This document shows positions 15,296 through 60,242 of a DNA stretch of 64,000 nucleotides, one piece after another. The stretch lies in NCBI GenBank assembly GCA_951406725.2, contig OX597815.1, forward strand, positions 47,182,001 to 47,246,000. Direction: 5' to 3'. The notes under the pieces were generated by a model. It was not told where the DNA came from. It did not search any database and saw only the letters and a program-made list of their open reading frames with translations. The position numbers and the translations under genes are program-made. The number at the start of each line of letters is the position of its first letter. Within the stretch, counting starts at the first letter, position 1. Origin of the DNA: Octopus vulgaris (lineage: Eukaryota).

Positions 15296-15899
15296 CATAT
15301 TTTTAATGGCTACATTAGCGAAGAAGGGTAGATGCCATGATTTATTCCAAGGTTTTCAAGGTTGGTGGAGAAAGAAGAGAAAATCTTATTTCTTAATAGA
15401 GCAGGACGTAAGATGAATGCGTCAAGATGTATTACCATAATTTCAAAGGTATAGACTGAATGAAGGAAAGCAAGGCAGCAGTGTAAAACAAAGTGATAGA
15501 TTATGAATTCATGTGTAAGAGACCAAGAATTCAAACGTGGAATTATTGACCTCCCTTTATGAAACGATTTTCAAGAACTGCTCGATATACCTATTTAGAC
15601 ATCACGTGGTCACGTGACCGACCAGGCTATCTCCGTTGGCTAGGCGAGCAGGCCAAAAAAATCTCCCTGATCAAAGATGAACTAGAGCAATGTGAAATAA
15701 ATTGTTTTGTTCAAGAACGCACTGCGCTACCCAGTCAGGGAATCGAACCCACGATCTAGCTATCTATCATGCAACAACCTAGCCACTAGGCCACGCACCT
15801 TCACCATTTAGATATGCAATATTTAGACATACGATATTAAATTGTCCTATCGTTATATTTTCTATAATCCTCTCGTCGTATTCGTGATTATCAAACTAT

Positions 15900-26750: not shown

Positions 26751-28093
26751 GAAACCAATATGCACTGACGTACAGACAGATAATAATACACTCACACGAG
26801 CGGGCCACACTAACATGAAATATCTCATTGTAAAGACCTCTGTGTTCGGCGCCGTTCAAACTTATTCACTTTTCTCTTTGTGACTCCAAATTATTTGCAA
26901 GTCAATACATTTCAAACTTGAAGATTTTACAGAGAAAAATCTTAGTTTCCTTTTTATAGTTGCATTTGTTGTTGCTGACGATGATAATGGTGATGATGAT
27001 GATGACTCTATTGTTGCTGCTGCTGTTATTGATATTGTTGTCTTCGTTGTAAATATGGCCGCCGTGGTGGACTGATTGAAATGTGTTATTGTTTCTTTAA
27101 GATATTACAGTATCTATTACGAATAAACAATATCTATTCTGAACTATCCCTTTGTTGTTGTTATTGTTGTTGTTGCTTTTTTTTATCATCCCCTAGAACT
27201 TGAAGCAAGATACTTATAAAGAATATCGAATATGACTAATTCTAAAAGTTAGGTTCAATTCTTTGTGTAATGTGACATCCGAATCAAGCGATAAGTATAA
27301 AGTAAAACGTTATTACATAACTGGACTATTTGCTCTGTATTCTTTGACTAGTTTTTCTTTATGTCAGTTATTTTCGTTCTCGTATCTATTACACAACTAT
27401 GTCAGTTTTGATGATATTTGAAGCCAGTTTCTCACTCAAACACGAGTCAAACGATTCTACGATTAAAGACACCCCAGATATTTCCATTATACCATAATCT
27501 AAGAACATGAATTTCTTGTTCATTATTTGCTGATGTTCAGCTCTCGGTCATCTTTGGTAAAAGAGATTTATTATCAAACGCATTGTAACCATCCATTTAT
27601 TTTCAAATACTGAGGAGCGAATCAATTAATAATGCAAAACATTCTACATGCCTTTTTAATAAACATATTGTTGAAACCTCGCTTAAAAAGCTAAAGAAAC
27701 TGTCTGCTCCATAAGATTTAGGATATTACACAGGCTGTTTGAGCTATATCCGAGTTTGTATACAGTATAAATAACCAAAAACAATCCGAAAAAACCCGCC
27801 ATTTACATAGATGTGTAAAGAGTGAACATTTCTATATGCTACGTTGGATACATTGGTTGTTCATCTGGTATTTTGATTTTGTTCATTCGTTATAAATCTT
27901 GAATTATGCTTGCACTGAGGACTAAAATGTGCATTACTGCACTAATTATGAAATCACGGTGATATACAGCTAAATTCTGTTTTTAAATGGCTTGCTTCGA
28001 GAGTTGCATTCGGTACGATATGTTTATTTATTTTGGTAGTTTTGACTTTAAGAGTCCCCCCTGTCATGTGGAATTTATGTATAGTAATGCCCT

Positions 28094-28146
<53 letters not shown>

Positions 28147-29247: not shown

Positions 29248-29649
29248 ATAATAGAAATATTAAAATTACTAAGTCTCTCTAAAGGAGATTACGGCAGCGT
29301 TACTGGATATTAATAGTTATCACCATACTAATATGGCAGTCTATAAATAAGACTAAAGCTGTCGCTGATTAGCTCCAAGAGGCCATCGCCTCTAGCTAGC
29401 TATATGATACACGAACCTGCGTCCATTACAACCTGTTCGAAGGTTGTAATGGACCTTCGAACAGGTTGTAATGGACGCAGGTTCGTGTGTCATATAGCTA
29501 GCTAGAGGCGATGGCCCCTTGGAGCTAATCAGCGACAGCTTTAGTCTTATTTATAGACTGCCATATTAGTATGACGATAACTAGTAATGTCCAGTAACGC
29601 TGCCGTAATCTCCTTTAGAGAGACTTAGTAATTTTAATATTTCTATTAT
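29248..29649. repeat. Near-perfect 402-bp palindrome, about 197-bp arms with an 8-nt spacer
   Basis: ATAATAGAAATATT...TTCGAAGGT | TGTAATGG | ACCTTCGAA...AATATTTCTATTAT, with few mismatches. Confidence 0.95.
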
Positions 29650-35850: not shown

Positions 35851-37081
35851 TGCGTGCACGTGGTACCGAACATTTCGAAGGCAGTAACTAAATTTCTTAA
35901 TCCTTTGAATTGAAACTTCTCCCAGACATTTCTCAACTCACCAAAATCCATTACTGTCAAGTCTTTCAAAGAAACTGGCCAACCATTTCAAATTTATCAC
36001 CCCAGTCTTTTGAATCAATTGATATGTTAGCCTTGTTTGTACAGTATATCGCTAAGATGTCAAAACTTTTCAGATTAATTTACTCACTAGTTCACAATTC
36101 TTATATAAAATCATTCACCAGGAACACTTACGGATTTTCACATCTAATCCTATGCATTCTCACATGTTATATAAGGAAAAGAAACGTTTTATAAGTCTAT
36201 ATAGTCCCAATCTTTCATCAAGACAGCTATCAGGCTCGTTGCAATCAAGCAAGTCATCAAATCAGCTTTCATCGTAACTAAGTACCAGATACACTATGGC
36301 TAATCAATAAGTTCTAGTGACCTACAATTAAACGGATTATTTAAGCCTTTACGTGATCATTCTGATTGCTAGAAATAGCTACCAAATCTCCTTAAACAAA
36401 ATTGCGAATAATAGGAATCGTACAATATCGCATTCTAAAACCTCGGAATGCGGTATAAGGAAATAAATGTACGAAGGTGTTGGACGCCATATTGAATTTA
36501 CGAACACTAAAAAATAGTATGATGCTACTTTACCGCACAATAGAATAATTCTATCGCATGTGAGATCCTGGATCGATTTTAAAGAGGAAAAACTTGGTTA
36601 ATGCATATTCACATAGTTCAATGCATCCTCACAGTGAACATAGGGAAAAGGAAACAGCGAGAATATGCTCAGTGCGAAAGAATTCGCAAATGAAAAGCCA
36701 TATGTCAGTTTGCTGTCTGTCTGTCTGTATGTGTATGCGCGCGCGTGTGTGTAAGAATTTAGAAACTTCAAGAGAACATGAAATAATGTTGTGGAACGTT
36801 GGATCTTGAACTACATAACCTATATAGCAGCGTAAAGAAGTAGGAGGCTGCCCATGGGACACGGGGACAATATATATAAAAACCCACACCCACTTACATA
36901 TACACACATACACACACACGCATATATACACACGTACATGTACACATGCATATATATATATATATATCACGTGATCACGTGACCGGCCAGACCATCAGAT
37001 GTTGTTACACATCGCTGGTCACAATGCGTTCGCATTGTTTTAGCCTTCGAATGACGCCACCCCGCTGGCTAAGCGAGCAGG

Positions 37082-40286: not shown

Positions 40287-40399
40287 TATTGTGTCATGGG
40301 AGGTCCAGTAAGCCAAGACACAATAATACTAATTTCAACACACAAATTCACATCAAGAATCTTGCAAACTAGATGCAACACAAAGATGTACTTATATAT

Positions 40400-43162: not shown

Positions 43163-43166
<4 letters not shown>

Positions 43167-43462
43167 TACGGAGATGTACTTGTTTAGCAAGTGACCTGAT
43201 CTGAGATTGTGTTCCGAAACAAAAACAAATTGCAGCGTGGAAGGTGTTTATAAACCATTTAAAATCACGCAAAAACCGTTAGATTCACTTCAACATTTAA
43301 ATCTAATTTGCCAATAGAGATGCAGCACGGAATTTTGTCAGTGATCAGATCACGGTCTCAAAGCAACGAAAATATTTCAGCAAATTAAATTTAAACGCTG
43401 AAGTGAATCTAACGGGTTTTTTATGTGTTTTTAAATGGCTTATAAATACCTTCCACGCTGCA

Positions 43463-43466
<4 letters not shown>
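43163..43466. mobile_element. Fold-back element, same family as 59636-59972
   Basis: Inverted repeat 43227-43466 with the shared leader CGGAGATGTACT, flanked by (AT)n. Confidence 0.88.
43334..43384 (+). ncRNA. Degenerate G3:C8 hammerhead-like motif
   Basis: UUUGUCA GUGAUCA G ... GAAA AUAU UU. Stems I and II are eroded. Confidence 0.5.
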
Positions 43467-43493
<27 letters not shown>

Positions 43494-44230
43494 CAACGGG
43501 CTTCTTTCAGTTTCCACCTGCCAAACCCACCCACAAAGCTTTGATAGGTTGGAGACTATAATAGAAGACAAAGTTACACGCAGTGGGATGGAACCCGCAA
43601 CCATGTTGAGCAGCAAAATACTCACCACAGAGCCACGCCTCATTTTTTGCAAACGAAGAAAAGGAACAACTACTTTTTTATATCATTTGCATTATGAGTT
43701 CATCAGCGAAGCCTAATATTAATTAAACTTGCCAAAGATGTGACGAAAGAAACATTAAGTGCGTTTGGGTACGTGATACTGTACTGTATGGTGAAAAAGA
43801 AAACCCAGAATTGTTTGGAATATAAATATTTTAGAGATGATATCAGCATAAAAACAATAGATAAGTAGTGTTAACATATCACATTCGTCACCGCATGATT
43901 ATTTCTTGTTAAAATTTTTAAGACTCCGTGCTTTATATGTTTATTATTACTAAAGGTATTGTTTGTCGTATGGAAGACGTCTCAGAATTATAATAATAAT
44001 CTGCGAAGATTGTCTGAGAGATATTGCAGTATCATAGTTAAAGCTCTAGACACAAATATGCTCCGCACGCAGACATATTTTGCACATAGTCTGTTGAACA
44101 AAACACAAGGAATAGAACTCAGTGCATACACAGACACACACTGACACACACACACACACACAAACACACGCACACAAACACACGCACAATGTGTGCATGC
44201 GTGTGTGTGTGTGTGTGCGTGTCTGTGTGT

Positions 44231-44790
44231 AGGCGCAGGCGTGGCTGTGTAGTAAGAAGCTTAATTGCCAACCAATTAATTCCAGATTCAGTGCTTCGCA
44301 CAATAGGCAATTGTCTTTTACTGTACTCTCGGACCGACCGAAGCCTTGTCAGTAGATTTGGATGATGGAAACTAAAAGAAGCCCTTCGTATATATATCCC
44401 TATATATATATGTAAGGGTATGTGGATGATTGTGCCTCGATCTGTCGATCACTACCGTTTGGCAACTTGTGTTGGTGTGTTTACATAAAAAGATATGATA
44501 AATACCAGGATTTTACAAATGTACTGGGGTTGGCTCATTCGACTATAAGCTCCTAAAGGCGGTGCACCAGAATGGTCTCTGTCTGCTGATTGAAACTAGT
44601 TAAAAAGATATATATATATCCCGTTCGTGGAGTCGCAATGGCCCAGCGGTTAGGGTAGCGGACTCTCGGTCATATGATCGTGGTATTGATTCCCAGACCG
44701 GGTTTTGTGGGTGTTTAAAACACTTAAAGCTTCACGGAGCTCCGACAGGGGGTGGCGGCGAACCCTGTTGTACTCTTTCTCCCCACTTGG
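44231..44790 (+). mobile_element. Family B SINE followed by a second tRNA-derived SINE (44628-44790, related to 62150-62420)
   Basis: Heads AGGCGCAGGCGTGGCTGTGTAGTAAG and TGGCCCAGCGGTTAGGGTAGCGGACT. Confidence 0.8.
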
Positions 44791-45136
44791 AACATACATT
44801 GCTTATGTTTCAGGGATGGTATTACACTCTTAAAATTTTTCACATAATGAGTAACGGTACCCCTGGGGGCAGAAAACATGCATTCCTGGGTTATGTGGAG
44901 AAGGGAGGTGAGTTTTTGCGAAATAACTATCAGAAATTGATTGTCTCCCTTACATCTATTGGTCATAAAAAATTGCTTTTTATATTAGCTTCACGTCTTT
45001 GAAAGATTTTAAAATATTTACTTCCGGTATTCTAGCGTCAGTGACGTCTATATCTCTCTATCACTCTCTCTCTCTCTGTATATATATATATATATCACTA
45101 TATCTATCTACCTCTCTGTATCTATCTGCCTCTATC

Positions 45137-45208
<72 letters not shown>

Positions 45209-45239
45209 GTCTATCTTATTTTTCTAACTAGCTAACTAT

Positions 45240-46310
45240 CTCTCTCCCCTCTCTCTATATCTCACTCACTATTGTTTTCACTTTCATTTTTCAGACACTA
45301 TTGTTTTCACTTTATGTTCAATTGCTATTGTTTTTAATATAAGTTTTCAATCGCTTTTTATAAACAACAACAAATTACTAACATAAAGAAGTTCACAATT
45401 ACTGATGAAAGTAATTTCATACATGATTTACTGACATAAGTAACTTCACAAGTTTCACTTCAATCCGTACACATCGTTAAATTTACCTACAAACTTCTTA
45501 TTTACTTTTGCAACGCTTTGTGTTTTTTGTTGTTGTTTTTTTTTTTTTTGTTGACGGAATTACTGATAAAAGTAAGTTCATAATTTACTGACAGAAATAA
45601 CTTCAAAAATTTCACTTACCCAGTTATTTTCATTGTTTACTATCCTCTGCACCCGTGTATTTCTGTATACGTATATAACAATACCTAGAAGGAAAGTGTC
45701 AAATTTGTCTACAATGTCAAGGTCAGCCAAAAAATGTCTCTCTCCTGGGAAAGAGAGACAGCTGCAGAAAGGGAAGCATACCAACTGTGCACTACAAAAG
45801 CCAAAGCATCACAAAGTGAAGAACAGAAGTGAAGAACGGCTGACAAGGAATAGGTATCTCCACTGCAGAACGAGGAGTAGTTGCAACAGCTCAGAGAAGC
45901 AACTTTTATGAAGTAGCTTTCAATTATGATCCAGCAGTTCATTATGCAGATGACACTAGAGTTCCGATTGGTGCAATGATAACTGAGTGCATATATTGTA
46001 AAGCAAGGAAGTGGCCTGGAGAGAGACTTGCACTTTGCAGCAGTGGTGGAAATGTTAAAATCGCTGCAATTCCCTAAACTTCAGAGTCATTGATGAAACT
46101 GTTGGCATCAACTGATCAAGATTCCAAGCACTTGCAAAACAAAATTAGACAATACAGCGCTGCACTACTGATGGCATCATTTGAAGCCACAAGAGATTTT
46201 ACTAAGCCAGGATTCATGCACACTTTCAAGATCCAAGGTCAGATTAATTATCGGATTGGCTCTCTACTGCTTCAGTCAAATGAATCACGAAAATGGTCCT
46301 TTCATTGTTT
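45240..46310 (+). pseudogene. Helitron 5' remnant (RepHel N-terminal region)
   Basis: AFNYDP..IGAM..CIYCKARKWPGE..C and SKHLQNKIRQYSAALLMASF..FMHTFKIQGQINYRIGSLL. Short internal repeats lie upstream. Confidence 0.85.
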
Positions 46311-46559
46311 ATAATTTCTACCTGATTTTTGGTTACGAAATAACGTACAGGAAACTTGTTTTTGAATTAAGTGCATTTATTTGATGTACATATATGAGTT
46401 GAAAACTTTCTTTTCACTTAATATCTATGTTCCATGCTGGGATGGATTGGAATGTTCTTACTGTAGAAAGCTGGTATCTCAGCCACTAGCAGTTCAGATC
46501 TACGTAATCTAGACGGCATTTTAAAATTTCATTATTTCCGTTAACCCTATATATATATG

Positions 46560-46605
<46 letters not shown>

Positions 46606-46608
<3 letters not shown>

Positions 46609-46770
46609 GCAGGAGTGGCTGGGTGGTAAGAAGCTTGCTTCCCAACCACATGGTTTCGAGTTCAGTCTCAGAGCGTTGCACCTTGGGCAGGTGTCTTCTA
46701 CGATATCCACGGACTGACAAAACCTTGTGAGTGGATCTGGTAGATGGAAACTGAAAGACGCCCGTCGTAT
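46606..46770 (+). mobile_element. Family B SINE 5' half
   Basis: CGCAGGAGTGGCTGGGTGGTAAGAAGCTTGCTTCCCAACCACATGG. Confidence 0.88.
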
Positions 46771-46773
46771 ATA

Positions 46774-46955
46774 TATTGGAACTTCCGACGCATGTCATTT
46801 TCAAATTTCTGGCAGAGTGAATTGCATCATGGTGTTGTTTTTATCACGGACGGTGCACAACTGACCCTAGTATACTGTATAGCAGCAAACTCAGAAACAA
46901 AGCGCACGTGCGAAATAAAAAATATAAAATGGCCACAATTTACCCATCGCCTCAT
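46774..46955 (-). mobile_element. Terminal fragment of a Tc1/mariner (maT-like) family
   Basis: Matches 49141-49325 and 61135-61323. Confidence 0.7.
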
Positions 46956-47050
46956 CTATACATACATATATATATACATACACATTTATATGTATATAAA
47001 TGTGTGTGTATATATGTGTTTGTGTGTTTGTGTGTGCGTATATAGATATA

Positions 47051-47478
47051 TAATTGTAATCTGAATAAACATTTTAGAACAACGCTTCAACTGTAATAAT
47101 ACTAGTAGAGGTGATATTGGATTTAAAAAGTGACGCTATCACTTTCAGCTGAATACCAACCGCGTTCGCTTGTCTGAATTAGTTCACTTTGAAATGTCGT
47201 TAGAGATGGACCCTTGCTGAGTGGAGATTTAATCACACCAAAAACTATTTTATCAAATAGTTTACTACAGCATATATAACAATGACCAACATATGCTCTT
47301 ACTGCAGCAACTGCACATTGCGCTGTATGCAATTATGCATCCTTGTCACTGCAATTTAAACGAGTGGCCTCTGTTGGTATTCAGTTGAAAGTGCTAAAGT
47401 TACTTTTTAGATCCAATATCACCTCTACTGGTACTACAGTTGAAGCGTTGTTTTAAAATGTTTATTCAGATTACAATT
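47051..47478. mobile_element. Fold-back / MITE-like element with arms of about 110 bp, in (AT)n context
   Basis: TAATTGTAATCTGAATAAACATTTTA..AGTAGAGGTGATATTGGAT..CTGAATACCAAC is mirrored at about 47372-47478. Confidence 0.85.
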
Positions 47479-47496
47479 AATTGTAGTACTCGTGAC

Positions 47497-47571
<75 letters not shown>

Positions 47572-47844
47572 CATATAAATATATATATGTATATAAATGT
47601 ATATATAAATATATATACATACACACAGACATATATACATATAAATATGGATATATATATATATATATATATATTTATTTATTTATTTATTTATACATAT
47701 ATTTATCTATCTATATATATATATTTATACACACACGCACATAACACACACACACATAACATACACACACATATATGTATATATATATTTTCTCTCTCTC
47801 CTTTTTTTCTCTCATTGTTTCTCTTCTTGTTTATTTCTGTGTCC

Positions 47845-47880
47845 CTTTCTGTAGAAGAGCGTAGGCTCGAAACGTAAAAG
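47845..47880 (+). ncRNA. Minimal hammerhead-like motif with an A6U deviation, in a short element (about 47820-47970)
   Basis: CUUU CUGUAGA A GAGC-GUAG-GCUC GAAA CG UA AAAG. It is related to 42982-43018. Confidence 0.6.
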
Positions 47881-47968
47881 ACATTTTTGTATTCCTGAGC
47901 GTTATACTAATACATCTGTTTGTTTTGTACATCACTTGTCTTCGTCTTTTGTTTTTTTCGTAAACTCT

Positions 47969-48038
<70 letters not shown>

Positions 48039-48045
48039 TATATAT

Positions 48046-48960
48046 GAAAATGTCAAGCTGCCATACAAACTGAAGGAGAGAATAATATGCCCAAAAGGAG
48101 GAAGCAGAGTAGATGTAAAAAATTACAGGCCTATCTCTCTGACTTCACACATCAGCAAATCCATAGAAAGAATAGTCAGAGGGAAACTAATTGCATTCTT
48201 TGAAGAAAAGGACTTGCTGAGTGATACCCAGCATGATTTTCGACCAGTTAGGAGCTGCCTACAGCACTATGACTGGGTATTGAAAAAGTTACTTGACAAC
48301 AGAAATGTGGACGTAATATACCTTGACTTTGCAATAGCTTTTGATAAAGTTGATCATGGTATGATATGCCACAAACCGCGCGATTTTTGCATAGCAGGAA
48401 AACGTGGAGAGTGGTTACATGACTTTGTGAAAGATAGAAGTCAGGCAGTGGTGGCCAATGGAGCCACCTCAAAGGAAACATAAATAGTGAGTGGTCTTCC
48501 ACAGGGCACTGTCTTAGGACCACTGCTTTTAACAGTGGCCCTCTCAGATATGCCTTCAGCTGCCCGGGTAGCCACCCTTTCTGGCTATGCAAACGATACG
48601 AAAGCCTCACAGAATATACAAAACCCTAGCGATGTTGCACACCTGTAGCAGGAGCTGGACGGAATTTACAGATAGGCTGAAGAGAATAATATGCAGTTTA
48701 ATGCTGGAAAATTCCAGGCTCCGCACTACCAGAGGCAAAAGTGAACGAAAAACTTGCAGGATACATGGGCCCAGGGGATGTTACAACTCCAGAACCTAAA
48801 TCAGTGCGTGACCTAGGTATCTACATGAGTGATGATACCTCTTTCCAAGTGCATATTGCCTAGATGGTGACAAAGTGTAGACGGCTGGCTGGCTGGATCC
48901 TGAGAACATTCAGAACCAGAGAGAAGGAAACCATGATGGTCCTCTTGAGGACATTCGGGT
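48046..48960 (+). pseudogene. CR1/L2-like LINE reverse transcriptase fragment
   Basis: KNYRPISLTSHISK, QHDFRP, VIYLDFAIAFDKVDH, SGLPQGTVLGPLL and YANDT, with stops. Confidence 0.92.
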
Positions 48961-49326
48961 GACTTTTATGTCCAATGAGTCAACGTTTTGCACGTGCATC
49001 CTGCAGGCATAACTTCGCGATCATTAGAGATCTCTCCAAACGCCATGATCTTGATTGGCTGTTTGATTTTTATCACTCTCGGTAAATATCCTCACATTGC
49101 ATTGTCCTCAGCTTAATACTCAAACTTTCTGAAATGTTCGTATTGGAACTTCCGACGCATGTCGTTTTCAAATTTCTGGCAGAGTGAATTGCGTCATGGT
49201 GTTATTATTCTCACAGACGGTGCCCAACTGACCCTAGTATACTGTGTTGTCGCAAACTCATAAACAATGCGAACGTGCGAAATAAATAAATATAAAACGT
49301 CTACAATTTACTCAGCGCATCCTGTA
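48961..49326 (-). mobile_element. Deleted Tc1/mariner (maT/DD37D-like) element
   Basis: The minus strand starts TACAGGATG and encodes KQPIKIMAFGEISND.EVMP. Confidence 0.65.
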
Positions 49327-49450
49327 TTCATACATACACACATACATACATACATACATACTTACATACATACATACATACATAGATACATACATGCATA
49401 CATACATGCATACATACATGCATGCATACATACATACATACATACATACA

Positions 49451-49486
<36 letters not shown>

Positions 49487-49494
49487 TCTATGTA

Positions 49495-49539
<45 letters not shown>

Positions 49540-49689
49540 CTAATGTAAGATAAAATTTTTTTCCCGAAAAAATTTTACCAATGGCCAGCATATCAAAAAA
49601 TACCTTTAAAGGTTAAATTTATAAATAATTTACAAAAATTAGGGCGAAAGAAACATTCTAATGCCATATACACACATATATATATATAC

Positions 49690-49746
<57 letters not shown>

Positions 49747-50175
49747 GTGGGTGAATGGCCTATTATGGTCGTTCCTTGATTGTGATATATATATATGTAT
49801 ATATACATATATATATGTATATAAACATATATATATATGTGTGTGTGTGTATGTATAAAGTCATAATGTATGGATTCAAGTAATCCGGCAGTATTCATAA
49901 AAAGACTCCTTAGTTTGTCATAGCATAAATCATATAGGGTGTATGGGAATATACATGCATACCTACATGCATACTTACATACATTTATGTATGTATCTAT
50001 ATATGTATATACATATGTGTGTATGTATGTATAAACATTTTAGCTACTGCCGACGGAAGCAGCGCTTGTAAAGAATATTCATTTGTACATCCGACTTAAT
50101 TTGGATGCGTTGCTTTGAACACGAAAAGCTTCGTTAACCGTCTTGAGAAATAATTTCGTATGGACGGATTTTCGA

Positions 50176-50264
<89 letters not shown>

Positions 50265-50344
50265 GTGTGTGCGTATGTGTGTATGTGTGTGTGTATGCAT
50301 TAATTGAAAAAAGCCTGCAACAATCCTATGTGAAGGAGAGAGAG

Positions 50345-50485
50345 AGAGAGCAGACAAAGAAGCCTGGGTTATAAAAAACATCAAGTCAAACCAAAAGGTC
50401 TTCTTTCATCATGCCAAAGGAACAACCTCAATATGCAGCAAAATAGGACTCCTCTTCCAGAAGGATGGCTCTCTTACCGAACTAA
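50345..50485 (+). pseudogene. Short CR1-like ORF2 fragment
   Basis: NIKSNQKVFFHHAK..SKIGLLFQKDGSLT. Confidence 0.55.
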
Positions 50486-51317
50486 TGAATCTAACAAGAG
50501 TTTGTGGTTCTTGTTTCTACCAACAGTAAACGAGTTATAAACTGAGTTGTGCTGATATCTGCCAACCGATAATAAATCATCGGAACTGCGAGAATCGAAA
50601 TGCTGACTTTCATATATAGTCTTAATACGTTCCGGGTGATTCGTACTTGAATATTCTAATCGTTGTTGTATTTGAATATTGGAGAAAATTTCTCCTGTGA
50701 TGAAATGTGTTCATATTGTGTTCATAACATGTTCAATTCATTAGAGTAAGAGAACTCTGGGACATTTTGTGCTTTGACTCATCAGGAGTATCTTTCTTTG
50801 ACGAGAGAGAAAAGGATATCGAAACACGAGGGAAACTAAAGTATACCAATGAATCGAATGTCCTATAAACACACATTCGTCTTAAGGAAATCATTCTTTT
50901 ATGATGAAATACGACAGCAATTTTGATACTCGCAGTCGACCGTGTAATTGCTAATTAATCATCTTATAAATGATAATTTGAAATAAAACTAGACTAGTAT
51001 GTGATTTGAACTTCATTACTTGTTTACATAGATATAATTGCTGTGTTTAGCCGATCGAGAATCCAGTATCAAAAATATGGATTTGATTAATTTTAATTAT
51101 TTCCCTAGTTTACAACTTTTCGTCTCATAAATTTTTAATATTTATTTCCATATTTATTTATGTAGATGCTATCAATTTTAAATGTAATTTCGGAAATAAT
51201 GCAAATATAAGCAACTTCATTTAGAATATTTTAGATGAATGTCCATTATCAACCACTATTAAAAATGCTTGTTTTGTATTAAATATGCTATCGATATTAT
51301 TTATTTCACGAATGCCG

Positions 51318-51496
51318 GGAGCTGGCAGAATAGTTAGTACAACGGACAAAGTACTTACGAGTATTTCGTCCATTTTTACGTTCTGTGTTCAAATTCCGCC
51401 AAGGTCGACTTAGCCTTTCGTTCTTCTGATTTCGATAAAATGACTAGACATCAAGAAATGGGGTTGATGAAATCAACTATTCCCTCCCCAACTAAA

Positions 51497-51555
<59 letters not shown>
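51318..51555 (+). mobile_element. Family A SINE with adjacent (TTA)n
   Basis: GAGCTGGCAGAATAGTTAG..GTTCAAATTCCGCCAAGGTCGAC. Confidence 0.8.
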
Positions 51556-51556
<1 letters not shown>

Positions 51557-52236
51557 TCTTCTTTCAGTTTTGTTTCCATTGCCTGCCAAGTGTCTTCCCC
51601 ACACCTAGGGCAATAAAACTTCGCTATATAGATTGGTAGGCCATTAAAATAAACACACTAGATTGTTCATTTATAAAGTCAATATATATCATAGAAAAAA
51701 AAGGAAAAAAGAAAGAAAATGGAAGAAATGAAAAATGAAAATAAAAAATATCAAAATATGAAATGAAAAAGAAAATGATGAAAAATGGGTGAGAGTGTGC
51801 TTGGTACGTGTGTTTGACAGACCGTAAATAAAAAGAAGAAAATGAAAAAAAGCGTCGACTGAAACTTGATAAATATCTGAATTGACCAGTTAAAAGCCCT
51901 TTATTTTGGAAAGGTTTTAAATTTTGTTAGTGTTACTTATGTACAGTTCTTTTTATGTGGATGACAAGCTCAAGTTTAAGAGAACTAGATGGACTTGGTT
52001 TTGTAAAAATCAAAATTTTCTGAAAATGATATTGTTAAATGCATTACAAAACTCAACAAACAATATATTTTACACAGAACTACTTGCGAAGTATATGTAT
52101 GCGCTATATTATGAAATGTAAAGAGATAAAGCTTTATACATGGTGCCATCCTCAAGCTGTCCCCATTTTATAGATGCAAACAGAGCAATTCTGAAATCTG
52201 AAATATTTCGGGTTCCAAAGAATTTCGAACTGAGTA

Positions 52237-52303
<67 letters not shown>

Positions 52304-52477
52304 ATGTATTTATATACATGAGGGTATGTATGTGTATGATCAGGTATGTGAAAATAATTGTATTGCTGTGTGTGACTGATATGTGAAAAATGTCAACATC
52401 TATCTAATTAGTGCTTTTCTCTCTCTCCACCCTATATACACGTATTCACGCGCACCCATGTATACATACATCACACA

Positions 52478-52543
<66 letters not shown>

Positions 52544-53187
52544 CATATATATATATACATGATACATACTTCCTCACATGCATAGATACACACATCCATA
52601 CAAATATATATACGTGTACATGCGTGTGTGTGTGTGTGTGCAAGTGTGTGTGTGTGTGTGTGATGTGATATTTTATAATCATTACAATTATGGGTTGCAC
52701 CTTCTCAAGTGACGGCACATAAAATTCAAAGAGAAGTAAAAAGGAAATCTCATACACACATAACACATAATAAAAACATACCAAAAAGCAAGGATTAAAA
52801 GTCAACAAGAATTTGAACTTGAGACATGTTCAAAAGAGGGGTGAGGGTGTGATAAAGAAATACAAACATTGATTCTTATTACTTTAGCAGATTTTTGTCT
52901 TTTCGAAGTAACTTTGTCAAACCCAAAACAAACACATGCCCGAATCACATTTGTTGTTTCGGAGTAAGTAGGATGCATTGCAAGCTGTTGTACTAATTTT
53001 TATTCAACTAAACTGATGAGTTAAGCGTTATAAAACGTGATGTGTGTACCAATAATAATAATAATAATACTGGGTCATGATATTTTGCCATCTTGTGTGA
53101 GTGTGCTTATGTCTAGTGAAATTCAGTGTATATAAACCCTCCTTAACTCTCACCAAGCGATATTCATGAAATAATGATTATAATAAT

Positions 53188-53430
53188 ACTTTCTACTACA
53201 GCCACAAGGCCTCAGAAAATTTTGCTGGTTTGTGTGTGTGTGTGTGGGGGGGTTCGGTCGGGAATCGATTACATCGACTCCAGTACTCAACAGGTACTTA
53301 TTTTATCGAACCCGAATAGATAAAAAACCAAAGTCAACCTCGGCGGAATTTGAACTCAGAACGTAAAGACGGACGAAATGCTGCGAAGCATTTTGCCCGG
53401 CACGGTAACGGCTCTTCCAGCTCGCCGCCA
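53188..53430 (-). mobile_element. Family A SINE
   Basis: CCTCGGCGGAATTTGAACTCAGAACGTAAAGACGGACGAAATG. Confidence 0.85.
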
Positions 53431-53437
53431 TAGTAAA

Positions 53438-53526
<89 letters not shown>

Positions 53527-53554
53527 CAACAATGATAATAACTTATTCGTTTAT

Positions 53555-54704
53555 TGTCCACACATGACAACCTAGGGAGAGAAATCCACGGGGAGCTATG
53601 TAGAAAGCTAGCATTTGAACATTCTCATAAATGGTATGAACATGAACCTAGTAAAGTACTAGAAAGTAAGAAATGTAAGATGTTGTGGGACTTCAACATT
53701 CAGACTGAGAGAGACATAGAAACAAACACAGAAAAAGCTAAGCGTATGAAAACCCGTGCTAAAACTGCTGCCTTAGTTAATCTTACTGATAAATGGCAAG
53801 AAAAACCCCTCAATGGCAAATACCCAAAGAGAGCTAGCAATAGTTGTTGATAAAGTCCTTACCCATCAGTGGTTAATGTTATATGGATTATAATCAGAGA
53901 CAGAAAGGTTTATCATAGCAGCCCAAGATCAAAGCCTACCTACAAGGAGCTACCAGGCCAATATATTAAAGAACATATTAAAGTAGCCCAACATGTCGTG
54001 TATGTCAACAACAAAATGAAACCATCGATCATGTCTCCATGGGCAGTCTTCTTGCGCCTACAGAGTATCTCAAGAGGCATGATAGAGCAGCACAGTATAT
54101 TCACTGAGTAATTAGCAAAAACTTGGACCTGCCCCATGATAAAAACTGATGGAAGCACAAACCACCTCTCGTGCTTGAAAACGACCACATCTTACTCGTC
54201 TGGAACTTCACCGTTCAAACTGACAGAAAGATAACTGCGTATAGCCCAGACACTATATGACTGTCCCAATCGACATAAATGTATCTGACAAGACCTACCA
54301 AAAAGCTGAGCACGTATAAAGACCTTGAAATAGAAATTTCTAAAATGTGGAACCTCAAGACTAAAACAATAACTGTTGTCATAGGTGCCCTAGCAATGAC
54401 AGCAAAAGGGGATGATTGCTACATAGCTCTGATACCAGGAAATACAAAAATGGCAGAATTTCAAAAAATAGTGCTCATGGGAACTGCCCATATCCTACGT
54501 ATAATACTTTCTATGTAATCCCAAATTTTAAAATAAACATAATTTTTTTGTTTTCTTAAACATTCTCTAGAACAATACTTTGTGAAAAACCAAATATATG
54601 GTACCCTAGGTATAACACCAACTTGAATTTCTAACCTGTTGTCTCTTGAGGTCTCTTGGTGAGACTTGGATTCAACTTGTACAAATACAAAGCAAAAGCC
54701 ATAG

Positions 54705-54799
<95 letters not shown>

Positions 54800-55003
54800 G
54801 CAATAATAATAAACCGGAATTGACATGAGAGCAGAGCAAGCCCCCCAAACCACTGCTCTGCTGAGGGCAGCTAGGATTTTGAGATTGGTACTTGGATTTT
54901 GCAGAAAGCGACCCTGAGATCCCTCTGACAACAGGCAGTTGTCCCCTCCCACAGAATCAACCAGAGCAAATAGGACTGAGCGCTCTGAGAACTAAAATAA
55001 TAA
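53555..55003 (+). mobile_element. Cluster of R4/Dong-like (RLE) LINE 3' fragments embedded in (TAA)n
   Basis: HDNLGREIH.ELC..KWYEHEP..LWDFNIQT, AAQDQSLPTR..CRVC..ETIDH..RHD and KYKDL-like TYKDLEIEISKMW..VVIGAL..QKIVLMGTAHILR. A (TAA)n tail lies at 54707-54811, followed by a third end TALLRAARILR. Confidence 0.85.
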
Positions 55004-55049
55004 TATATGAAATATTCACTAGAAGTTCATGAATATTCCTCAAATCTAT

Positions 55050-55262
55050 AATATTGGCTTCTGATTTTCGCACAAGGCCAACAATTTCGGGGCACGGGGT
55101 AAGTCAATTAAATTGACCCCCAGTGTTCCATTGGTACTTATTTTATCGACTCCGAAAGGATGAAAGGCAAAGTCGACCTCGGCAGAATTTGAAATCAGAA
55201 CGTAAATACGAACGAAAGCATTTTGCCCGGCGTTCTAAAGATTCTGCCAGTTCGCCGCCTTG
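55050..55262 (-). mobile_element. Family A SINE
   Basis: CCGAAAGGATGAAAGGCAAAGTCGACCTCGGC. Confidence 0.88.
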
Positions 55263-57141
55263 CTAAAATCTATAATATTGACTTCTCCTATATGTACAAG
55301 TTCATTAATTGTGAAGGGAATAGGATACTGTTCCTAGTACATGACTGATACTTATATTAGCGACTTCAAACGCATGAAAAGCGAACTCTACCAACATATT
55401 AATCAAATTCAGCTCGGTATGATTCCATCTAATATATTGCCAATGCTTATAATGTTAAACTGATCTAGTCGGTATACTTAGTTATAGCTGCATGGATTGT
55501 GCAGTTGTTATTTAAGTGTCTTCGTCATGAACACTGTGAGGTACGGGTGATAGGGTACAAACTTTTATTTTTTCGGTATATATGTCGACAGAGATTATCG
55601 CTTCAAACAGCTGGAAACTTGTTGCTGAAAAAATGATGAGGAGCATTCGTAGTCCGATGATTAAGTTACTGACCATGATATGCTTGACGTGAATTGGATT
55701 GATGTAGAGCGTTTACAGAGAAGAGAAATTCCAGAAAATCTTATACATATTTCACTGTAGTTAAAAAACCTGGAAGATGGTGTTTCATTATAACGTCAGA
55801 CAAAATGCTTTGTTGTATTTACTCCGGCTCATTACGTCCTGTGTTCAAATCCCACCGAGTTTAAATTTGCTTGTCATCTCTCCGGGGCCGATAAAATCCA
55901 GGGTGATGGATATTTTTACGTTCCGAATACATGAAGAATGGCAACAGGTAACGTGCTTTGCATTCTCCCACGAAGGTTCAATGGTAAGGAAGTTTTCAAT
56001 GGACATTCGACACCCACATGACCTAAAGAGCACAAAATGAATTGTAATGTTAACTAAAATAGTGTCTTACTCAGCTTCACGCATCATGATGTTAAGAAGA
56101 TGTTTCATATTTAAATTATTATTATGAAGAAAATCGAGCTCCAAATATTTGGGTGTCAAATCTTTGCAGTAAATGAATATTATACAAGCAGTATTTGATC
56201 TACAAAGGTTATATATCATTAAATTTTATCAAAACTAGGAACAGAAAAGTAAATGGTGTAGTCCTTTCAATGAGCTCGGTTTCTGCTTTTCTTTTCCGCC
56301 CAAGGTTCGCTTATTTGCTCCAATCAGCTATTGCGTGTCACACTTTGTGGGCTTCGTATTAAACCTTCTCCAGTTTTCTTCCAAGGCAAGTCACCTTCTA
56401 AAATTTTGTCTCCAACTACCATGCAAACATTGATGTATAAAGCTGTGGAGTGGAACATCAATCTCATCAGTCTGGAAACTCATACAGCGATAATGAGTGT
56501 AGAAACCATCCTACTGAATAAGTTATGAAAAAAGGTCATGGCAGGGTCCTTAAAAGCATAGCCTTCAGTGCTATGCGGTTTCATGAATAAAATATTAAGA
56601 GTTTTGCTTCAGTTATACCGGTGAACGAAGGAATTTGATAAGCAACGAGGTAAAAAAAAATCTTCTGCCGTTCCAACGAGTTTATGATGCTGATGTTGTA
56701 TTCTTTGGAAAAGAGTTTTCAGTTTAAATAACAAGACTGAGTTGTATTTACAATGAATCAGAGAATTCTGTATTCGTCTTCTTTATCTTGCAGATTATCT
56801 CTGAGCTGTGATCAAAAGTATTACAAACTTTATGTCGCTATCTCAGTTTAAATTTTAATGCGTCTAGTATTTGCCCCACGCATGCTTCTCCATTCCTTTC
56901 TCAAAGGGAAACATCTCATATCAACTTAATCTTCTGCAGTTTATTAAAAATAGCAAACGAGCTAACGAAAACATCTATATGGTTCGTGTATGTGACTAGC
57001 GAAATTAAATCATATACTAAATAATTTACTATAGTGAACTACTTGTGAATATTTGTGTATGTGTGTTTGTGCGTGCGTGTTTGCATTTATATGAGCTTGT
57101 ATATATACATACATACATACATGCATACATACATACATACA

Positions 57142-57233
<92 letters not shown>

Positions 57234-57446
57234 TTATGAGAGGTAATTGTGTCATTGAGACCCAAAGGTGTCAGGTAATGCTGAATAAGTGCTATAGATG
57301 GACCGCAGTTAAGTTCCAGGTTCGGTGATTATGCGAATAAGGGGTTCAACGTTGGTCTTATGCCAGCGTGTGTATATAAAAATTTTATTTCGTAATGAGA
57401 TAAAAAAAACCCAAGGAGGTGTAGATTTTAGAAATTTATAGATAGT

Positions 57447-57492
57447 TCTTACAGCTGTTTCCAGGATATTTATTATATCCGTTCATCGGAGA
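57447..57492 (-). ncRNA. Hammerhead-like motif with U4C core, in an (AT)n-flanked element (about 57232-57690)
   Basis: The minus strand reads UCU CCGAUGA AC GGAUAU-AAUAA-AUAUCC UG GAAA CAGCUG UA AGA. Confidence 0.65.
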
Positions 57493-58509
57493 CGGTGTGA
57501 AAGGATGGTTAAGAAATAGTTAATTTAGATAAGATATAAAATAGAGAGTAAAGTGGGGGAAATAAAAGAAAATAGATGTGGAATATGTAGGGATATTGCA
57601 TTTGTAGATCTATTTTTTTAGGCAGAATGGTATACATATAGGATTCCAACACCTGTCTTCGTCCTTTGTTTTTTTTTTGTGAATTCTCCTTATATATATA
57701 TATATATATATATATTTCGATATATTGAAGATGTGGATGCATTACATTCGAGGTTGAAAATGTTTAGCATATTTTCTTATGAATACTTTTGGGCTTAGTT
57801 TGGAAGAGTAACGTTTTTAAGTCCACACCCTAGGCTGGCTGATCTTTCAGAAATAACTCACAGATCTGCATTAAATATACTGTGATTGTCTTGAAACTGG
57901 AGACCATAAATTATGAAGGGTTAAAAACTGCACAGAAGTAAGTTTCCTCAATAAAACTTACTTGCTCTACTTTCATGTAAAGAAAAATAGTTACTTTGTT
58001 TTTCTTGATCTCAAGACACATTGCCGAAAAATAAAGTTAAAGAATAACACAGATTAGAAACACACTAAAGAACTGTAAAAGGAAAACAAAAACAACTCAA
58101 CACAGAGAAGAACATCTTTATTAGAGCTGATAGAAGCCGACGAAAATCACAATACCATACGTTACATAGTAATTATTGCAGTGAAAGAAAACAAAAAACC
58201 TTAAAGACTCATACATAATATAATATTTCCCAGTGTCTGTCTGAAGCAAACAAACACACCCACACAGACATAGAAAACGCCTTCTCCAACACACAGACAC
58301 GCATACATGCGTGTGAGTGTGCACACATGCGTTGGGGGTAACGTCTTTTATCTTTTATTTGTTTCCGTTACTGGACGGCAGGCATATTGAGGCATTGCCT
58401 TGAAAGGATTAGTCCAGTGGTTCTCAACCGGGTTCTAAATGGCCCTTGACCCTATGGTCCCCTTGGAGGAATCAAAAGTGTCCATAGTTTAACAAAAAAT
58501 GGTTGGAAA

Positions 58510-58820
58510 GGCGTGGCTCTGTGATGAGAAGCTTGCTTCCCAACCACATGGTTTCGGGTTCAGTTCTGCTGCATCGAACCTTGGGCAAATGTCTTCTCTT
58601 ATAGCTTCAGGCCGTGTGTGTGCTTGTGTGTATGTGTGTGAGAGTGTTTGTCCCTCGCCCATCATTTGACAACCGATGTTGCTGTGATCATGTTCCTGTA
58701 AATTAGCAGTTTGGCAAAAGCGACCGATAGAATAAGTAGTAGGCTTACAAAGAATGTCCCCTGGAGTCGATTTGTTCGACTAAAACCCTTCAAGGCAGTG
58801 ATCCAGCATGACCACCTGTG
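58510..58820 (+). mobile_element. Family B SINE
   Basis: GGCGTGGCTCTGTGATGAGAAGCTTGCTTCCCAACCACATGG. Confidence 0.82.
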
Positions 58821-59055
58821 GTTGATAAATATCAAGTGGTATATTCCGGTTGTGCACACAGAGAAAACCAGCCCTAAGAATATTTAGCGCAGAGAGACTG
58901 GTCTAAAGCAGGCGTTACGTTGATTGTAGGTTGTTGAAATACACCAGTGTGTCCGACGTGCCGTAAATCCCTACGATATATCAAAATCAAATGCATAATA
59001 ACAATTATCTATCGTCTGTTAATCTTCATTTGCACTCCTTAAAATTTTACCCCTC

Positions 59056-59114
<59 letters not shown>

Positions 59115-59532
59115 TTTTACTCTTTTACTCTTTTACTTGTTTCAGTCATTTGACTGCGGCCATGCTGGAGCACCGCATTTTAGTCGAGCAAATCGACCCC
59201 GGGACTTATTCTTTGTAAGCCCAGTACTTATTCTATCGGTCTCTTTTGCCGAACCGCTAAGTAACGGGGACGTAAACACACCAGCATGTCAAGCAATGCT
59301 AGGGGAACAAACACAGACACACAAACATATACACATACACACCCACACACATACATATATACAAACATACGACAGGCTTCTTTCAGTTTCCGTCTACCAA
59401 ATCCTCTCACAAGGGTTTGGTCGGCCCGAGGCTATAGCAGAAGACACTTGCCCAAGGTGCCACGCAGTGGGACTGAACCCGGAACCATGTGGTTGGTAAG
59501 CAAGCTACTTACCACACAGACACTCCTGCGCT
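59115..59532 (-). mobile_element. Family B SINE, full length
   Basis: Reverse complement of the 17654-18040 family, with a (TAAAAGAG) tail. Confidence 0.92.
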
Positions 59533-59616
<84 letters not shown>

Positions 59617-59775
59617 AAATATATATATATATAATCACGGAGATGTACTCGCATAGCAAGTAATTTGATCTGAGATCGTGTGCTGAAACGAAAACAATTG
59701 CAGCGTGGAAGGTGTTTATAAGCCATTTAAGAAACACACAAAAGCCGTTCGATTCACTTCAACATTTAAGTTTAA

Positions 59776-59825
59776 TTTGTCAAAATATTTTCGTCGCTAA
59801 AATCCGCGACCTGTTCACTGACAAA
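59776..59825 (-). ncRNA. Type I hammerhead motif with G3:C8 covariant core
   Basis: The minus strand reads UUUGUCA GUGAACA G GUCGC-GGAUUUUA-GCGAC GAAA AUAU UU UGACAAA. It has a 7-bp stem I, a 5-bp stem II and palindromic AAUAUU. Confidence 0.72.
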
Positions 59826-59847
59826 AATCCGTGATGCAGCACGGATT

Positions 59848-59890
59848 TTTGTCAGTGAACAGGTCGCGGAGACGAAAATATTTTGACAAA
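59848..59890 (+). ncRNA. Type I hammerhead motif with G3:C8 core and shortened stem II
   Basis: UUUGUCA GUGAACA G GUC-GCGGA-GAC GAAA AUAU UU UGACAAA. Confidence 0.65.
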
Positions 59891-60242
59891 TGAAACTTAA
59901 ATGTTGAAGTGAATCGAACGGCTTTTGTGTGTTTCTTAAATGACTTATAAACACCTTCCACGCTGCAATTGTATATATAATCATATCAAAGGGAAATGGA
60001 AATTAATTAAAATTTACATTTCCAGTGGTCTAACGTGTAAAAATTTAGTCCAAAAGACTATATATTAGTCATACGATATAGTATATATTTAAACACATGA
60101 GGAATCCACTTATAGGAATTCAACACGCTAGGAAGAACAGCTAGGATATATAACCACAAAAAATTAGGGATAAAATTCGACGGGAACGAAATGAAAACTA
60201 AAAACATTTTACCATCTAGTTTCCTGAACCAATTGGTTTCTG

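Follow-up and report, generated by a model that had tools for sequence, protein, structure and literature searches.

Minimal hammerhead ribozymes (min-HHRs) occur in Penelope-like retroelements (PLEs), where they are slow even as dimers and where pairs on opposite strands have already been described (PMC4209133). Fig. S3 of that paper shows 56 PLE motifs, and in every one of them core positions 3 and 8 pair as C3-G8 or U3-A8. In vitro work on Poseidon PAc, a PLE of Anolis, describes a predicted dimer, nicking and extension of both DNA strands, uncut RNA as the template, two start sites for the reverse transcriptase (RT) that define a "tail", and a hammerhead that needs protein; an engineered C3G/G8C change partly rescues activity (PMC11167929). 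Among PLEs, a CX2-5CxxC linker ahead of the endonuclease defines the Neptune and Nematis clades (PMC8557442). This analysis presents a PLE of Octopus vulgaris whose hammerhead carries the exchanged core pair G3:C8, and two inverted pieces of it that lie in a 64,000-nucleotide stretch of contig OX597815.1 (positions 47,182,001 to 47,246,000; the whole stretch is called the window).

G3:C8 is a genuine, naturally occurring form of the PLE hammerhead, and the element that carries it is an ordinary PLE; comparison among families supports this well, with measurable exceptions. The favored interpretation, given a probability of about 0.75, is that the window elements are head-to-head end-pieces of a PLE with a minimal type I G3:C8 hammerhead in its 5' leader. 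This hammerhead probably cleaves at a slow rate, and then only when dimeric or assisted by protein. Cutting by this natural swapped core is predicted to be weak, and it likely takes place in RNA of the parent element rather than in the fold-back copies.

The hammerhead motif and covariation at positions 3 and 8

The motif at 59776-59825 (minus strand) has the full type I hammerhead fold that the sequence-only reading had assigned to it: a 7-bp stem I, the core GUGAACA (59812-59818; G3 at 59818, C8 at 59813), a 5-bp stem II, GAAA, and AUAUUU, with cleavage predicted from hammerhead geometry after UUU, between 59783 and 59782. The core departs from C3 U4 G5 A6 N7 G8 A9 / G12 A13 A14 only at G3 and C8, and only one of 200 shuffled sequences folds equally well (z = -3.40). 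A single extra G, absent from the earlier description, sits between A9 and stem II (the 9/10.1 position). Stem III is palindromic (a 10-nt self-complementary stretch with a predicted duplex energy of -3.8 kcal/mol) and includes A15.1-U16.1 and the UUU cut site. In the native leader, stems I and II are predicted to form with pair probabilities of 0.67-1.0.

The two other motifs of the window are less complete. The copy on the opposite arm (59848-59890, plus strand) retains GUGAACA, as had been claimed; a 7-nt deletion has reduced its stem II to 3 bp (z = -1.41). The older copy (43334-43386, plus strand) does read GUGAUCA, but the claim that it differs only at the free position 7 does not stand, since G10.1 is lost, the stems are broken, and the fold is no better than chance (z = +0.14). 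Nor does this copy inform on position 7: its U7 is a private mutation, since among 30 loci viewed from its subfamily (L031-L060) a single one has U7 and the majority letter is A7. Its partner arm (43166-43314) ends before the core. No Rfam hammerhead model matched over the core at E <= 10, and scans of the window and the element returned only repeat-driven, microRNA-type noise; standard searches, including those based on CUGANGA, thus miss this motif, as had been predicted.

Searches of the genome (2.8 Gb in 227 contigs) place the motif in a multi-copy family for which G3:C8 is the family state, as the sequence-only reading had supposed. The G3:C8 pattern has 8,043 matches, compared with 30 for the reversed control, and a 31-nt segment taken from the element is matched exactly at 852 places. 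The corresponding patterns for C3:G8 and U3:A8 have 5,770 matches (control 111) and 4,980 matches (control 161), whereas G3 with a letter other than C8 has 678 (control 209). Sister families carry these other states in a hammerhead at the homologous position, C3:G8 in family B and U3:A8 in family C, and there are more C3:G8 groups besides family B. The ORF (open reading frame) starts of the sister families are 35-45% identical, and family B reaches 55% over 815 aa. Many long open frames, of up to 1312 codons, are present in family B (L191:1328-1380, L231-L250).

Covariation at 3:8 was examined in an alignment of 17 hand-picked copies from seven groups. Positions 3 and 8 pair in 17/17 (GC in 8, CG in 7, UA in 2), two of the five stem II pairs are changed on both sides, and U4, G5, A6, G12, A13, A14, and A15.1 are invariant, which the search patterns partly impose. 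Compensatory changes are found in both stems I and II, and G10.1:C11.1 is present. An older relative, family E, which was sampled through an anchor downstream of the motif, provides the better test. Its majority sequence equals that of family A in 21 of 22 letters of core, stem II, and GAAA, with only N7 different, and its stem I carries a compensated pair (G-C for U-A), while loop II agrees in 3 of 9 positions and the spacer to the ATG in 37 of 49 (about 76%). Among its 24 readable cores, 12 are G3:C8. The homologous families with C3:G8 or U3:A8, together with an older relative with G3:C8 and compensated stems, indicate that 3:8 covaries in nature. Contigs of four public runs, labelled as four organisms, have no alternative letter at or above 3% at the core positions.

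The G3:C8 state is not absolutely fixed, contrary to what had been supposed. Exceptions were counted within a single sequence context that belongs to the older subfamilies; there, G3:C8 has 5,200 matches, G8 has 216 (with G3 in 98 of the first 100 listed), A8 or U8 has 185 (20 A and 80 U among the first 100 listed, counted by hand), and C8 without G3 has 212 (13 C3 among the first 100 listed, also counted by hand). About 4% of the older copies therefore hold an unpaired G3·G8. These copies (L281-L310) are scattered over loop II types and subfamilies, are often confined to one arm of a fold-back although both arms can carry the change, and are found in family E as well. The idea that they form a single clade, or represent an ancestral intermediate, is not supported, given this scatter, the frequent one-armed state, and the fact that the older family E is already mostly G3:C8.

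The parent element and its insertions in the window

The longer copies identify the parent element, which had gone unnoticed in the sequence-only reading: what had been taken for a free-standing dispersed fold-back family consists of the pseudo-LTR (pseudo-long terminal repeat) ends of an autonomous PLE. In these copies the upstream sequence runs through a pseudo-LTR of about 1 kb into the end of an ORF. The open frame used (L125; 999 codons) has a YVDD motif, a C-x3-C-x2-C linker, and a GIY-YIG domain (Pfam PF01541, E 1.6e-5), and its nearest Atlas clusters are HTH_animal / RVT_1 / GIY-YIG at 0.96-0.97; a PDB sequence search with the ORF gave no match. In 12/12 loci with a long ORF, hand-picked for long open frames among 150 matches, the G3:C8 core lies 971-1034 nt past the stop of the ORF with RT and GIY-YIG. 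The core also lies just 5' of the start codon (ATG) in L139 and L151, so the pseudo-LTR is placed both past the ORF stop and ahead of the ORF start. Flanking repeats of 8-14 bp are present at 41 of 86 long ends (11-14 bp in 28 of the 41; the shortest may be due to chance), and the targets are AT-rich or microsatellite sequence. The element is, as judged from its sequence, an endonuclease-positive PLE with a linker of the Neptune/Nematis type, and the fold-back repeats, when set against the longer copies, are short end-pieces of this PLE, which has thousands of genomic copies.

Between 43163 and 59972 the PLE has inserted twice, at separate places some 16 kb from each other, and both insertions are head-to-head pseudo-LTR pieces of it. 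The insertion at the right lies between identical 11-bp target-site duplications (59627-59637, bordering a (TA)n tract, and 59973-59983). Its long arm (59638-59833, minus strand) comprises the 5' leader, the complete hammerhead, and the ORF start as far as the distal, or "tail", end; it matches the pseudo-LTR of an ORF-bearing copy at 97%, and in L138, L139, and L151 the same sequence continues into the ORF. The first 29 codons of the ORF encoding the RT-endonuclease protein (RT-EN) occupy 59640-59726 (minus strand), and they translate to the same N-terminus as the L138 and L139 ORFs. The short arm (59833-59972, plus strand) begins 1 nt past the likely transcription start, contains the second hammerhead copy, and ends at about codon 11. 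The other insertion belongs to an older subfamily. Its long arm (43166-43314, minus strand) is 5'-truncated and lacks the hammerhead core, whereas its short arm (43317-43465, plus strand), which begins with a G that precedes the likely start site, includes the decayed hammerhead.

Several other repeats are present in the window. At positions 1-864 a 479-nt unit is repeated twice in tandem, the copies being 99.7% identical. Both contain a type I hammerhead of the canonical CUGAUGA kind, with the cores at 244 and 723 on the plus strand and with stem III palindromic; at 27943-28128 there is diverged sequence related to part of this unit. This unit is a separate family, retrozyme- or PLE-like. An inverted repeat at 29248-29649 (197-nt arms, 97% complementary, 8-nt gap) has no match among the PLE families tested. 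Short remnants of the ORF-start region of sister families C and B lie at 36965-37019, 15601-15631, and 40333-40366.

Copy ends, proposed mechanism, and competing explanations

The 5' ends of copies were surveyed with an anchor located downstream of the motif, which has 7,762 matches; the first 100 arms listed were used. Fifty-six arms start within -6 to +10 of a single site, 22-23 nt ahead of G3; another 22 start between this site and the cut site, 12 start beyond the cut site, and 8 were scored further upstream, about half of these being (TA)n alignment artefacts. In L031-L060 the 5' ends had seemed to peak at the cut site. This peak was dropped because those loci had been chosen for their likeness to the 43163 copy, and in the unbiased sample only 2 of 100 arms end within 4 nt of the cut site. 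Among 30 loci that start exactly at the common site, 9 ends are templated, and a G stands in front of 18 of the 21 non-templated ones. RTs copy the cap as G, and a copied 5' cap best explains this leading G.

The fold-backs follow a strict rule at their 3' ends. In the unbiased set, 40 of 41 short fold-backs combine one long and one short 3' end, as do 80 of 82 in a wider, partly overlapping set, and for 61 of 99 arms a partner in inverted orientation lies no more than 380 nt away. Loop II differs between the arms in 4 of the 20 fold-backs in which both loops are readable, although decay may account for one of the four, and in three loci (L019, L332, and L350) arms of different subfamilies stand inside one 12-13 bp duplication. 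Such mixed arms suggest that a single insertion draws on two RNA templates; gene conversion at a later time could also have produced them. The pairing of long with short arms and the mixed arms fit the in vitro PLE work, in which a predicted dimer nicks and extends both strands from two start sites on uncut RNA (PMC11167929). Seven dispersed copies (L331, L366, L367, L370, L371, L375, and L395) share an identical fold-back junction, so that one fold-back may itself have multiplied or may have ridden inside another mobile unit. A head-to-tail array of at least seven short arms, each with the G3:C8 motif and with (TA)n between them, is found at L152 (G000:C28 near 4,995,000).

Under the favored interpretation, a promoter in the pseudo-LTR would start a capped RNA 22-23 nt ahead of the core, and the RT-EN protein would nick the two strands of AT-rich DNA at positions about 12 bp from each other. 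The protein would then prime on uncut RNA at two internal sites, near codon 10 and codon 30, and copying back to the cap would leave one short and one long arm, head to head. The G3:C8 pair may have been derived from C3:G8 and then retained by selection in source elements, the dispersed copies being presumed passengers that decay. In a read-through transcript of a fold-back the core is predicted to be fully paired on either strand (P(unpaired) 0.0); the read-through thus buries the core, and dispersed copies are probably not working ribozymes. Because the two arms lie on opposite strands, they form no dimer in cis. Any ribozyme function would belong to the parent RNA, either in tandem transcripts with two motifs or in two RNAs paired through the palindrome, and cutting there would remove the cap about 56 nt ahead of the ATG.

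Several observations weigh against this interpretation. The ORF has no Pfam RT match at E <= 0.1, and the RT call depends on motifs and the Atlas clusters. The perfect 3:8 pairing in the 17 copies is partly built in by their choice through the core pattern, and the copies are related, so that the pairing counts are not an independent statistic; family E was likewise first noticed through the G3:C8 pattern. One locus is duplicated in the set of ends, and for 11 of the 18 cap-like G's the target duplication or the inverted arm is another possible source. A spliceosomal intron is present in the 5' leader of some PLEs, and the common start site resembles a 3' splice site, with branch-point-like and acceptor-like sequence just upstream; no spliced junction was found among the copies or in the contigs, the latter being uninformative on starts, splicing, and cleavage. 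Copy ends do not pile up at the cut site. Changes from C8 to G (216) outnumber those to A and U together (185), are about six times as frequent as those to A, and exceed the transition too, which implies that source elements with an unpaired core have apparently moved. In 13 of the 16 youngest family B copies A9 is replaced by C, whereas older B copies retain A9, which means that successful families can have a drifting core.

The last three observations are those on which a dead or irrelevant relic would be argued, its G3:C8 fixed by drift through unpaired G3·G8 and its fold kept, if at all, as a structure for protein binding or RNA pairing. The excess of G3·G8 copies, which are scattered over subfamilies and sometimes have the change in both arms, agrees with such drift, as does the lack of effect of hammerhead mutants on in vitro insertion by the Poseidon PLE (PMC11167929). 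A relic is nevertheless rather improbable: three distinct Watson-Crick 3:8 states each dominate their own family, family E retains the core letters except N7 at a spacer identity of about 76%, and seven letters are invariant in the 17 copies, in part through the search patterns. A chance look-alike in a repeat, amplified by copy number, is scarcely credible. High copy number proves nothing by itself, and the absence of an Rfam match is what a look-alike would give, but it is refuted by the homologous families, whose cores at this position are either canonical or already published, and by their compensated stems. Another proposal, implied by the heading of the sequence-only reading, makes the fold-back itself the mobile unit, a non-autonomous family, MITE-like (resembling a miniature inverted-repeat transposable element) or retrozyme-like, which would replicate by means of its ribozyme. 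The dominance of short fold-backs, the partnered arms, the few recurring junctions, and the tandem arrays of short arms speak for it. The arms nonetheless belong to an ORF-bearing PLE, single arms insert with their own duplications, the ends are asymmetric, and the read-through RNA pairs the core fully; with junctions and target duplications variable as well, this proposal is very improbable and, by the variable junctions, largely refuted. Two specific forms were rejected on structure: a MITE or fold-back DNA transposon requires terminal inverted repeats with fixed ends and a fixed duplication length, and a non-LTR retrozyme requires head-to-tail tandem hammerhead units, whereas the window copies are head to head.

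A broader version of the favored interpretation is rather unlikely. It would combine an active natural G3:C8 hammerhead, and PLE families that use three of the four Watson-Crick 3:8 states in one genome, with fold-backs that each record a dimeric RT-endonuclease holding two RNAs; these would be primed on opposite DNA strands, each at its own one of the two internal sites, and both would be copied to the cap. The palindromic stem III would join the two RNAs and build an active dimeric ribozyme in trans.

Relation to known systems

As far as was found, the natural 3:8 covariation in print is U3-A8 only, and G3:C8 is there engineered and partly active. A literature search for natural G3:C8, which was incomplete and could have passed over an earlier mention, returned only engineered mutants or unrelated papers. 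A G3:C8 family of about 8,000 matches, with C3:G8 and U3:A8 relatives in one genome, offers a series made by nature in which the amount of cleavage that a PLE requires can be studied, and it indicates that standard descriptors undercount hammerheads. The strict pairing of a long with a short arm, the cap-like 5' end, and the arms of mixed subfamily yield testable predictions on how PLEs make inverted insertions.

Natural core variants described by Perreault et al. 2011 (PMC3088659) share with the Octopus motif a natural covariation at 3:8; U3-A8 is the variant named in the relevant part of that paper, whereas the change here is a G-C flip. The closest motif is the min-HHR of metazoan PLE pseudo-LTRs, including the U3-A8 form of Cercyon from Schistosoma mansoni (Cervera and De la Pena 2014, PMC4209133), which is likewise type I with a palindromic stem III. 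Also common to both are an extra nucleotide between 9 and 10.1, G10.1:C11.1, the location in the pseudo-LTR, and close pairs on opposite strands. The Octopus motif differs in its G3:C8 core and in the extra nucleotide, which is G here and H in the published consensus.

At the level of the element, the Neptune and Nematis endonuclease-positive PLEs (Craig et al. 2021, PMC8557442) share the C-terminal GIY-YIG domain, the CX2-5CxxC linker, an inverted 5'-truncated copy, a one-ended tail, and (TA)n targets. Poseidon PAc of Anolis (Frangieh et al. 2024, PMC11167929) resembles it in having a hammerhead at the junction of pseudo-LTR and ORF, two 3' ends inside the ORF start (the tail), AT-rich targets, and the copying of uncut RNA. 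The tail is about 60 nt here and 30-40 nt in Poseidon PAc, and the ATG lies about 56 nt past the predicted cut here but in stem II there. The G3:C8 pair, which is natural in the Octopus element, is in Poseidon PAc the engineered and partly active C3G/G8C.

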